NCBI GenBank assembly: GCA_965263295.1
Contig: OZ253665.1
Span: 1,632,001-1,696,000 of the forward strand
Origin: Spirochaetia bacterium
GTDB lineage: Bacteria; Spirochaetota; Spirochaetia; SP-2023
Direction: 5' to 3'
DNA: 64,000 nucleotides
The position numbers were made by a program, and so were the translations under genes. Position 1 is the stretch's first letter. The number at the start of each line of letters is the position of its first letter. This document shows positions 56,065-59,110 of this stretch, piece by piece. The notes under the pieces were generated by a model. That model saw only the letters and a list, made by a program, of their open reading frames with translations, had not been told where the DNA came from and ran no database searches.

Positions 56065-56130
56065 TTCGTGGTTCCTCCTCAGAGTCCCCTGGCCGAGTAA
56101 CCACGAAGCCACGAAAAACACCCAAAAATT
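56065..56130. repeat. Left end of the 17-kb repeat family
   Basis: CAGAGTCCCCTGGCCGAGTAACCACGAA (56080-56107) matches 17046-17072 apart from one extra C; preceded by TTCGTGGTT (56065). Confidence 0.9.
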
Positions 56131-56147
56131 AAAGCACCTTTCATTGT

Positions 56148-58739
56148 TTAGCTGACTTCCCTCCAGTCTTTTACCGCTTGTAGGTCCTCACCCAGAAGCT
56201 TATTGGTGTAATCCACGATTTCGGCGCTCACCTTGTCACTCGTTCTGTGGTTCATGCCGGGGCAATGATCGCCGTACATGTCGAGCACGTCGTCGACTTT
56301 CTCTCCCGAAGCTCTGTAAATGATTTCTCCGCGTCTATTCAGCTTATAAAAACGGTCTGCATAATTATTTATCTGCGCTCCTGACTCTTTGTGGCGGTAT
56401 TTGATCGTTTGATAAATAAATTCTGTTTTACCGTCGTACTGGCATGACATGATATTGTAGAGGCGACCTTTGAGTGCCTTGTTCAGCGGATTCTTGCTAT
56501 TCCGCATCTTTTTTTCTATTTCTTCCTTGAGCGACTTAAAATTTAAAGGGCTATTCACAAAATCTTGGAGGTCCCCTGCCTGGCCGGACGCTTTTAGGTA
56601 ATCCTTGCCTTCTTCACAGGCGATTATCCTATCTCTATAGATGGGCTCATTCATCACCTCCAGCATATCTTTTTTTAATTCCAAGAGCTTTTGCTCTTGC
56701 TGGAGGCGTTTTAATTTTGTGCCCAGCTTCATTGTATTAGTATAGGAGAGAAAAGCATAGGCAGCTTCGGCAAATGCCATCTCCGTCTGTCCCACAGTTG
56801 ATTGACCCCCTCCCTTCATATAATCTATTTTAGCAGTGGGTTTGGCAGGATTCTTTCCTAACGCAGACTGTGCCGCAAACTTTAACCAAGACTTCATAGC
56901 CTCATCTCCTATAGGCTTCTCTGCTGCTGTAGCCAGAGCTGCTGCAAGTGACACATCCTCTGGCTCGATCGGCGGTTCTATAAAGGGCATTTTTGGTATG
57001 TTTTCAATGGCTTTAGTACAATACCCTTTGGATATTTTATAGTCTTTTTGGCCGGCTTTTTGGCCGGAACTTATGCCAAACTTTTTCGTCGTATCCACCT
57101 CCTGTAAGCTTACGCCTGAGGCCACGCCATCAATTAGCCTTGTCGGAGAAAAGTCAGCCAGTTCCAATTTGCCGTCCCTCAATGCGGCCTCAGCCCACCA
57201 CCCTGCTGTAGTAGTGACCAGGGCCACAAATAAGGGCGCCGTGGCTCCTCCTGACACGATTGTCATCCCGGCAGCCCCGACAAGTTGCGCGATAGTAAAT
57301 ATTTTAAAGCACGTATTTGCCACTTTATTCATTTTTGCCTGAGATTTCAACCTTTTTATGCAGTCTTCTATTTCATCTTTTTTGCGTTCAATCTCTGCAC
57401 CGCATTGTTTTATATCCTCCTTCAGCATTTCATCTTTTATATACGCTGGCGGCAAGTCCGGATGTTCGTCCCGGTAATCTTTGCAAAGCTGGTAGTATTC
57501 CGTGAAAACCTCTGGGAGGGCTCTTACTTTATCATCATTGTTAAGATCATTAATAATTTTGGCAATCTCTTGCAGGTGCATCTTGTAGCCAAACTGGAAA
57601 TCCACTTCATAAAATTCTTTTTTGTATTTTACCACACGCGGTTTTCCTAAAATTTTTAACTCGCTTTTTTTGATAAAATTAGGTGCTTGCAGAGTCAAGG
57701 GACACTGGTAAATACGATCCTCCTTGACATCCCTCACAAAACGAATTTCTCTCTCCGGGCTCTTTGTCGCCTGACTTACATCCCAAGGGAATGCCAGCAC
57801 GCAAACCAAATCCGACCCCAAGTATACAGCGATGGGCAGCCCGACAGACATTACTCCCGATTTTCTATACTTGTACTTTAGGTAGCTATTCTCCCGCAGG
57901 TTCTGAACTTTCACTGAAATTGCCAGCTCATCCCCCAGATAGTAGAGGTTTTTCAGCGACGAAGAAAACTTCACCTTTACAGCTGGCCCCTTTTTAAAAC
58001 CCCTGACCACACATATTTCCGCCACGGGAGATACCTTCTCCTTTTGTTCTTCGGTCAAACCCTCCCAGAAAAAGACCAGGTAGAGCTCGCCGGCGGAGTC
58101 GTAAGGCAAGAGCTCCAGACGTTGTTGATTGCCTTTCAGATTCTCAATCAGTACCGACGGCACATCGGACATGGAAACCTCACTGGCCCTCTTCGTGGAG
58201 TCCAGACCCAGAGCCCCGATATCCATAGATTGGACCTCTTCCTGAAAAGATTGGGCGACCTGATCGTTTGACTCCGATTCCTGCGAGATGGGCAGCACCC
58301 GGAATCCCGTTATCTTAATGGTCTTTGCCATGCCCTCCATGTCCTCCATGTCCTCCATATCCTCCATATCATCGGGGACATCGGGGGGCTGAATCCCATC
58401 GGGATAGATCGTCAGCACCAGGGTTCCTGTGGAATCATTGGCACACAGCCTTAATTGAGAGTTTTGCAGCCCAATGTCCCGCAGCGCTGCCGTGCCCAGC
58501 AACTCCATAACGGAAACCGCGGAAGCCAGCCGGTCAGTCTTCAGACTGATGGCGTCTTCGTCCGCGGCGGCGGTATAAGAACCCTTTAAGGCCTTAATTT
58601 TACTCAGTTTGCTTTCCCCGTCGTATTTACGGCTATCGTCATTCAGGTTACAGCTAAAAATAGCCCCGGCCAGAATAGTCACCCAGATAGCTCGGAGGAA
58701 AAAGAAAATAATGACATATTTTTGCTTTGACATAAGCAT
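56148..58739 (-). CDS. Large orphan lipoprotein (tandem N-terminal repeat domains, coiled coils, internal hydrophobic hairpin)
   Basis: Signal peptide ending AIFSC; two related units (ASAVS..NDSTGTLVL..ITGF / ASEVS..YDSAGELYL..VRGF); hydrophobic IFTIAQLVGAAGMTIVSGGATAPLFVALVTT. Confidence 0.78.
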   Translation of the reverse strand: MLMSKQKYVIIFFFLRAIWVTILAGAIFSCNLNDDSRKYDGESKLSKIKALKGSYTAAADEDAISLKTDRLASAVSVMELLGTAALRDIGLQNSQLRLCANDSTGTLVLTIYPDGIQPPDVPDDMEDMEDMEDMEGMAKTIKITGFRVLPISQESESNDQVAQSFQEEVQSMDIGALGLDSTKRASEVSMSDVPSVLIENLKGNQQRLELLPYDSAGELYLVFFWEGLTEEQKEKVSPVAEICVVRGFKKGPAVKVKFSSSLKNLYYLGDELAISVKVQNLRENSYLKYKYRKSGVMSVGLPIAVYLGSDLVCVLAFPWDVSQATKSPEREIRFVRDVKEDRIYQCPLTLQAPNFIKKSELKILGKPRVVKYKKEFYEVDFQFGYKMHLQEIAKIINDLNNDDKVRALPEVFTEYYQLCKDYRDEHPDLPPAYIKDEMLKEDIKQCGAEIERKKDEIEDCIKRLKSQAKMNKVANTCFKIFTIAQLVGAAGMTIVSGGATAPLFVALVTTTAGWWAEAALRDGKLELADFSPTRLIDGVASGVSLQEVDTTKKFGISSGQKAGQKDYKISKGYCTKAIENIPKMPFIEPPIEPEDVSLAAALATAAEKPIGDEAMKSWLKFAAQSALGKNPAKPTAKIDYMKGGGQSTVGQTEMAFAEAAYAFLSYTNTMKLGTKLKRLQQEQKLLELKKDMLEVMNEPIYRDRIIACEEGKDYLKASGQAGDLQDFVNSPLNFKSLKEEIEKKMRNSKNPLNKALKGRLYNIMSCQYDGKTEFIYQTIKYRHKESGAQINNYADRFYKLNRRGEIIYRASGEKVDDVLDMYGDHCPGMNHRTSDKVSAEIVDYTNKLLGEDLQAVKDWREVS
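58334..58369. repeat. 9-bp tandem repeat encoding (DME)n
   Basis: CCTCCAT(G/A)T x4. Confidence 0.9.
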
Positions 58740-58855
58740 TCCATCCTTAAATAAACATTAAATAAACATTAAAAAATAACTGCTGAACTCAGCTGTATCT
58801 TGAATTTATTGTAAAAAATTAAAATATTTTTGCTAAATTATTTTTACCAAATTGC

Positions 58856-59110
58856 TTACCTGCCACCCGCAGGCTCCCCATCGTTCCACCCTCGGCCCCA
58901 GCCTAACTTTCGTGACCTTTCGCCACATTTCGTGCCTTTCGTGGTCCCCCTTTCGTGGTTCCCCTTTAAAGTTCCCCTGGCGCCCACAGTTCTCCGTCGT
59001 GCCACCTGCGGCTCCCCCGTCTAGATTTCGTGACCTTTCGCCACCTTTCCTGCCTTTCGTGGTTACTCTTTCGTGACCTTTCGCCGTCTTTCGTGCACTT
59101 TCGTGGTTCC
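58856..59110. repeat. Right part of the 17-kb repeat family (duplicated)
   Basis: CCCAGCCTA..TTTCGTG.CCTTTCGCC, CTAGATTTCGTG, TTCGTGGTTACTC (59056-59068) and TTCGTGGTTCC (59100-59110), matching 17193-17262 and 17403-17508. Confidence 0.9.

Follow-up and report, generated by a model that had tools for sequence, protein, structure and literature searches.

In a Spirochaetia bacterium (assembly GCA_965263295.1, here G000; a 2.41-Mb genome in a single contig, 92.6% complete by markers), the gene for a predicted lipoprotein of 863 amino acids (P0001) occupies the loop of one copy of a long hairpin repeat. The locus lies at 56065-59110 of the window, i.e., the whole stretch of 64,000 nucleotides that was analyzed (G000 C1:1632001-1696000, contig OZ253665.1); positions are those of the window unless G000 or a sister genome is named. 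The arm sequence of the repeat and the context of its copies place it in the arm family of GxxExxY proteins, predicted PD-(D/E)XK nucleases. Such arms quite probably are exchange points for the copying and shuffling of accessory genes. More tentatively, at slightly less than an even chance, we read the locus as a lipoprotein gene in the loop of a GxxExxY-arm repeat whose arms are likely crossover points, probably after cutting by the only GxxExxY nuclease of the genome. The nuclease would be a plausible driver of this process.

The first-pass annotation of this DNA had described two halves of a repeat split around a gene, and the gene, both halves and their coordinates were all found as described. 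The open reading frame runs from 56148 to 58739 on the minus strand. Past its stop there are, on the plus strand, the left tail (CAGAGTCCCCTGGCC), a shortened left arm (GTAACCACGAA...CAAAAATT) and the first loop bases (56074-56138), preceded by a remnant right-arm end (TTCGTGGTTCC, 56065-56075, plus strand), as at the junctions of tandem units (a right-arm word precedes the tail in 16 of 80 motif matches). Upstream of the gene follow a leader common to all three P0001 paralogues (58740-58794, minus strand), an AT-rich promoter-like segment (58795-58852, minus strand) and, on the plus strand, the loop end (TGCCACCC..GCTCCCC) with right-arm arrays (CTA(A/G)(A/C)TTTCGTG..TTCGTGGTT; 58856-59110). 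Both ends align to one and the same unit, the first in a gene-less block at 17 kb: 56074-56138 corresponds to unit bases 17040-17116, and 58860-58945 to unit bases 17174-17259. About 2.72 kb (the gene and its upstream DNA) thus replace about 57 loop bases (17117-17173). With at most one mismatch, GTAACCACGAA has 11 matches in the window compared with 0.53 expected, and none of 100 shuffles reaches 11; a one-mismatch match at 49036-49046 lies inside an M24 peptidase gene without arm context and is probably due to chance.

Two earlier readings of these ends had to be narrowed. The block at 17 kb (17040-17510, plus strand) had been taken for the empty form of the element. It does contain a gene-less unit matching both ends, but it consists of two tandem units behind a different lipoprotein gene (730 amino acids, PKD-type, family F4 with eight copies; 17519-19711, minus strand), whose stop it adjoins, and is not the empty allele of this site. 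Likewise, the perfect 13-bp inverted pair around the gene exists (GAGTAACCACGAA begins at 56095 and TTCGTGGTTACTC at 59056, a span of 2,974 bp when checked in the window), but it is not special, since the word occurs 30 times in the genome (14 + 16) and the pair represents only the repeat consensus.

The right-arm block of the locus has a mosaic structure. Loci at 458 kb and 2400.8 kb of G000 have the same inner flank, and its outer 52 bases recur in the promoter regions of F1, a coiled-coil/YraN-like family (an appendage common to five F1 copies; 59106-59158, plus strand). As it also holds the promoter piece of another, unrelated cassette family, the block does not belong to the lipoprotein gene alone; judging from its composition, it is what crossovers inside arms would leave. 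The AT-rich segment recurs at G000 458117-458168, upstream of another lipoprotein gene, and at G000 2400837-2400874, far upstream of the P0001 paralogue with 81% identity, and abuts loop/right-arm sequence at both of these places. The idea that this segment is a decayed left arm was rejected, 497 of 1000 shuffles scoring no worse against a left arm.

Across G000, the repeat forms 69 blocks with a total of 22.7 kb (70 clusters by BLAST), which are dispersed, lie in both orientations and are mostly tandem mosaics. A unit consists of a tail (CAGAGTCCCTGGCC), a left arm (GTAACCACGAA..CACCAAAAA..TTCTAAAA), a C-rich loop and at least one right arm (CTAGATTTCGTG..TTCGTGGTT); it is 109-269 bases long (typically about 200) and often stands in tandem. 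Gene-less hairpin copies of the arms are part of this genome. The minus strand of the first 17-kb unit forms a single long, G.U-rich hairpin (-92.2 kcal/mol, z -4.4), the other strand reaching -54.8 kcal/mol (z -3.0), and the minus strand is the better folder in 62 of the 63 units folded. With origin and terminus taken from GC skew, the better-folding strand has the leading-strand sequence (lagging-strand template) in 54 of 69 blocks, about ten blocks carrying weak orientation calls. The same replichore bias is seen in 27 of 39 clusters at 5 kb and in 19 of 24 untied clusters at 20 kb (p 0.007); only 53% of genes are co-directional with replication. A single-strand step is known for IS200/IS605 elements and attC sites. 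The bias fits a step of this kind, and the G-richness of the leading strand could contribute to it.

The repeat has no match in Rfam at E 0.1. The DNA at 17 kb has no match in 30 related genomes, where arms are related only at the level of words, and scans with the arm pattern gave four metagenome and 21 viral matches, none of which has arm context and which we attribute to chance. No description of these arms was found in the literature searched (main texts, subscription papers being outside the search). A suspected resemblance between the left tail and the 3' end of a tRNA did not hold, as no G000 tRNA scores above noise. A tRNA-Pro gene (G000 1937276-1937350) ends five bases from an arm block, and no other tRNA lies so close. 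A non-coding segment of about 200 bp occurs six times (G000 557625, 723130, 991544, 1882774, 1913137 and 2083195), five times at or near arms.

The link to GxxExxY proteins comes from the surroundings of their genes. Among the enzymes that the first-pass annotation had considered as possibly enclosed by the same ends, a GxxExxY protein is indeed present: G000 has one such gene (PF13366/TIGR04256, PD-(D/E)XK; G000 1901341-1901853, no stops), preceded by a right arm and followed, 29 bases past its stop, by a left arm, in the same order and orientation as at P0001. Arrays of a short word, purine arms on one side and pyrimidine arms on the other, enclose it; these flanks are the two largest arm blocks (1,286 and 2,596 bp). 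Its first codons resemble a decayed arm (VNDNKQERQEKILF compared with MNHEKHERHEKILF). In relatives from other genomes (the best 80 of 303 fetched), the inverted flanks score above every local control pair in 64 of 80 cases (one locus without control counted as a miss), CACGAA-type words upstream with their complements downstream occur in 58, and at least two of them on each side in 47. Within the genus, for which three sister species (G001, G002, G003) were used, arm words track the gene: CCACGAA..CACGAA has 163 matches in G000 (one GxxExxY gene), 21 in G001 (four full genes and a fragment), 11 in G002 (one gene) and none in G003 (no gene). The GxxExxY gene of G002 adjoins an array of a second word family (TCTGAACC..GAT; 34 matches), which is also found at 2.40-2.41 Mb. 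Arm sequence and context together assign the repeat to the GxxExxY arm family, and the GxxExxY protein may act on it. The nuclease has no sequence match in the PDB, and GxxExxY/PDDEXK_3 is a widespread family with no known function (PDDEXK_3 is given as function unknown in the available part of PMC3424549). In G001, GxxExxY genes, a gene similar to REP-associated tyrosine transposases (RAYTs) and small genes stand directly before methyltransferase-like restriction-modification genes, often with arms.

The proposal that the unit shuffles surface-protein genes was borne out in part. The association of arms is strong with duplicated accessory genes and weaker with lipoprotein genes, but most of this cargo lies between units rather than inside one. 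Among 1,776 own gene calls of at least 80 amino acids, an arm is present in a flanking gap for 34 of 61 dispersed paralogues versus 77 of 1,715 other genes (p 3e-27, a value that overstates the association because paralogues are not independent), and arms are present on both sides for 16 of 61 versus 9 of 1,715. With a tandem family left out, 25 of 51 paralogues stand beside an arm; for genes with a lipobox pattern the count is 15 of 109 versus 96 of 1,667 others. Thirteen of the 22 dispersed families have an arm-adjoining member. They include the PKD lipoproteins (eight copies), Lipoprotein_17-type genes, P0001 (three copies), F1 (five copies and fragments) and a coiled-coil gene with an eight-copy tandem array and one further copy. 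One YefM/YoeB-type pair has a left arm on one side and a loop/right arm on the other, and directly before a block there is a MazE/PemK pair. Neither rRNA-sized or IS-like duplicates nor IS-like fragments were found near arms.

The P0001 family itself provides a second case. Its paralogues are located at G000 2401297 (81%) and 462476 (54%). The copy with 81% identity shares the shortened left arm with P0001 (63 of 64 bases, G000 2403832-2403895), the homology between the two stops in the left tail, and a decayed start of loop/right arm is found about 430 bases upstream of the paralogue. The filled layout is thus present twice, in unrelated neighborhoods.

The tandem array consists of eight near-identical coiled-coil genes of about 140-160 codons (G000 1907142-1912982), with a ninth at 1929963. 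Arm blocks of 178-480 bp separate the eight genes, and the stop codon abuts the right arm, so that the array looks like an attC-type array without an integrase. A 2.8-kb duplicate with 99.75% identity (G000 1897510-1900305 and 1976778-1979570) holds a gene for a lipoprotein of 608 amino acids; its ends are a right-arm end and a TGGGCC site in the first codons of a phosphofructokinase-like gene. Of the four arm-free ends of recent duplicates, two start at TGGGCC, and the break in one F1 gene coincides with a GCCGAG microhomology to the tail; both are weak, post hoc observations. Phage tail-like genes (tape measure) are duplicated at 96% (G000 724743-729585 and 1914960-1918438), the second copy being situated between a left arm and a loop/right arm.

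A mechanism along the following lines can be proposed. The repeat would descend from the arms of the nuclease cassette and would have gained a loop of about 100 bases and a tail. Exchange between arm blocks would then copy an adjoining gene to new sites, producing mostly arrays with genes between units and sometimes a gene in the loop. The nuclease would recognize the folded arms, perhaps on the single-stranded lagging-strand template, and nick them, and host recombination would complete the exchange. In a wider version, which we regard as unlikely, the GxxExxY nuclease and its hairpin arms would constitute an integron-like cassette system without integrase, which would cut folded single-stranded arms near the GGCC tail, copy, array and re-promoter surface-lipoprotein, toxin-antitoxin and coiled-coil genes all over the chromosome, and in this way diversify the cell surface. 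G000 offers a clean test case: a single intact nuclease gene is accompanied by a single cognate repeat family (69 places), next to which stand dozens of duplicated accessory genes. Action of the nuclease on the arms would mean that a different enzyme fold underlies a REP/RAYT-like or integron-like system, and that a spirochete has here a way to diversify its surface proteins; otherwise, the locus is still an example of dispersed repeats that anchor the shuffling of lipoprotein genes.

Several results speak against a nuclease-driven exchange at the arms. The genome-wide tabulation of paired ends gave the 69 blocks and showed arms beside accessory genes, but a position inside a unit is taken by only three (those for P0001, the nuclease and another lipoprotein) of the 25 single genes that have an arm on each side; most stand between units, as does the P0001 paralogue with 54% identity; two copies of another family appear to be inside only through decay of inner arms. 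The ends of duplicates vary within arm blocks and do not fall on one base. The two ends of the locus pair no better than shuffled sequences can (-47.4 kcal/mol, compared with a shuffle mean of -40.0 and a best shuffle of -52.9). The three sister species also have F1 in multiple copies (3, 13 and 11 matches), and none of the 13 flanks examined there has these arms; in G002, a lipoprotein-like family of its own (about 275 amino acids) reaches at least 150 copies against 11 arm words. Amplification therefore does not need arms. Neither an empty allele nor a circle or excision joint was found in four sequencing runs, and the literature searched describes no activity of a GxxExxY protein. The expansion in sister species, the variable duplicate ends and the weak end pairing mean that the arms may be passengers or passive anchors.

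A rival explanation is a passive repeat: arms multiplied by slippage and RecA-type recombination would survive best in plastic, lipoprotein-rich regions and be copied together with their neighbors, the filled look would arise by inner-arm deletion, and the nuclease would move no cargo. It accounts for the genes between units, the decaying inner arms, the varied end points of duplicates in arm blocks and the F1 expansion without arms in sister species. In G002, too, most of the lipoprotein-like genes have no arms, although 10 of the 11 arm words adjoin such genes. Alone, however, it leaves unexplained why a single intact nuclease gene sits in the largest arm blocks, why arm family and gene match (both in G000 and G002, both absent from G003), and why there is a replichore bias, and we consider it somewhat unlikely. 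Quite unlikely, in our view, is an element acting in RNA, with arms that fold in transcripts and set the processing or stability of accessory mRNAs and a loop gene that is cut out like an open reading frame (ORF)-bearing 23S rRNA intervening sequence. A strand-specific G.U-rich hairpin would suit it, and transcription into a block follows the better-folding strand for 45 of 69 genes (p 0.015), in many cases with no more than 15 bases between stop and block; the replichore bias (54 of 69) is nevertheless stronger than this transcription bias, the Rfam search and the weakly pairing locus ends are unfavorable, and duplication ends in arms would remain without explanation. In ORF-bearing 23S rRNA intervening sequences the gene stands at the apex of a long hairpin; the present locus differs in lying between protein genes, in its 2.7-kb cargo with its own upstream region and in the weak pairing of its ends.

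That another enzyme moves the units (a lost RAYT-like HUH transposase, XerC/XerD or an IS transposase), with the GxxExxY gene as mere cargo, is very unlikely. A bias towards the lagging-strand template is typical of HUH elements, and in G001 a RAYT-like gene (NF047646, 75 bits, cut-off 80) stands beside such arms in a restriction-modification region. An HUH/RAYT transposase between the ends, as earlier envisaged, is not supported: PF01797 has no match in G000, G002 or G003, and the G001 protein has no tblastn match in G000. The arm-ended duplicate with 99.75% identity indicates recent activity in G000, and the Xer genes are at least 27 kb from any block. An integron gene cassette with attC-like ends is extremely improbable, even though arrays with genes between repeats, neighboring toxin-antitoxin pairs and stop codons abutting the repeat recall one. 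The first-pass annotation had already noted that full RYYYAAC and GTTRRRY boxes are missing at the ends, and rightly so (neither occurs at 56080-56135 or 59040-59115), while the link to integrons that it nevertheless drew has to be dropped: no integron integrase was found in G000, whose two tyrosine recombinases score best as XerC and XerD (83 and 104 bits with TIGR02249, cut-off 265), the blocks are dispersed in both orientations, and cassettes have their own promoter-like leaders.

Nuclease-driven exchange at the arms would have partial counterparts in known systems. As far as described in the available part of PMC3116915, REPIN/RAYT systems and bacterial interspersed mosaic elements (BIMEs) share with our repeat the extragenic inverted hairpin doublets in many copies (here 69 blocks, 63 units folded), the tandem mosaics and a single-copy enzyme gene amid the repeats. 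They differ from it in that the enzyme is an HUH tyrosine transposase, not a GxxExxY protein with PD-(D/E)XK fold, and in having short palindromes, whereas the arms here are arrays of CACGAA words with G.U asymmetry and accommodate multi-kb genes in the loop (PMC3116915, same part). No cognate RAYT (Y1 HUH) gene flanked by repeats was found in G000, which places the repeat outside REPIN/RAYT. Integron mobilization units (IMUs) and composites of miniature inverted-repeat transposable elements (MITEs) are similar in that non-coding repeats flank the cargo and the enzyme would act in trans; the IMU, however, has two whole MITEs, a DDE transposase and a 5-bp target duplication, whereas here one unit is split at its loop (PMC3184786, available part). 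No target duplication is visible in the flanks of the locus, whose true ends are uncertain and for which no empty site is known. The same part of PMC3184786 describes lipoprotein-linked repeats in another spirochete (IR-A/IR-B of Borrelia, IS605-derived stem-loops at lipoprotein gene ends) and a repeat-borne promoter before ORFs (REP2 of Neisseria); our repeat belongs to a different sequence family and is linked to GxxExxY, not to IS200/IS605.

In our locus the repeat may carry a portable promoter as well, since a promoter-like segment of the 52-bp appendage faces the next gene. This weak site (TTGCTA-N17-TAAGAT, 59127-59155) is under the threshold of a consensus scan; two other appendage copies carry TTGCCA-N17-TAAAAT. 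A shared promoter-like segment after right arms fronts F1 at G000 133787, 683678, 732077, 898381 and 1453411. The gene faced here encodes a major facilitator superfamily (MFS) transporter (59266-60576, plus strand; 55% GC). It was found in none of the three sister species and is probably a second accessory gene at a variable site. The left anchor of the site is a gene for a protein of 193 amino acids adjoining hslV (55453-56034, plus strand), which is kept beside hslVU in two of the three sister species. In G002, the flanks are syntenic (hslUV with the 193-amino-acid gene; a gene of the amino-acid-kinase family) and have other genes between them, which marks the site as variable; for an empty-site comparison, sister genomes are rearranged at lgt, a haloacid dehalogenase (HAD) gene and dapB. 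The lipoprotein-like family of G002 stands in arrays and was not found in G000, G001 or G003.

The contigs of four sequencing runs were compared with the locus (X2, X4, X5 and X6; X5-X8 are small shares). Runs X2 and X4 have the filled allele, and X5 is fragmentary. In X6 (depth 2-3) both flanks are covered, the lack of cover over P0001 being no proof of absence, and a contig of 9,925 bases departs from the window at 59274 and continues with 1,153 letters unlike it; DNA upstream of the MFS gene may differ in this run, but the departure is not an empty joint. A circle-like joint (59110 to 56170) was rejected as the end of the 462-kb paralogue, and a skip from 56107 to 58994 has only 21 letters on one side.

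P0001 was found neither in five of five relatives, including the three sister species, nor in JGI metagenomes; the protein database holds only four homologues at 0.55-1.75 times its length, and no Pfam or NCBIfam family matches it. Its likely start is Met3, followed by a lipobox-like IFSC whose Cys30 is invariant in five of five homologues. The AlphaFold model is unusable (pLDDT 37.8), and the protein atlas gave no usable match. A coiled coil is predicted in the protein, with a hydrophobic stretch rich in Gly and Ala behind it (about residues 475-520); both ends are conserved, and the middle is variable. Around the paralogue with 54% identity (G000 457-465 kb), a YefM/YoeB-type pair, two lipoprotein genes and the paralogue are found with arm blocks between them. 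Finally, G002 has lgt and dnaE two genes apart, and in G000 each of them is the neighbor of one of the P0001 paralogues (2.40 Mb and 0.46 Mb), which is possibly a trace of rearrangement, or chance.

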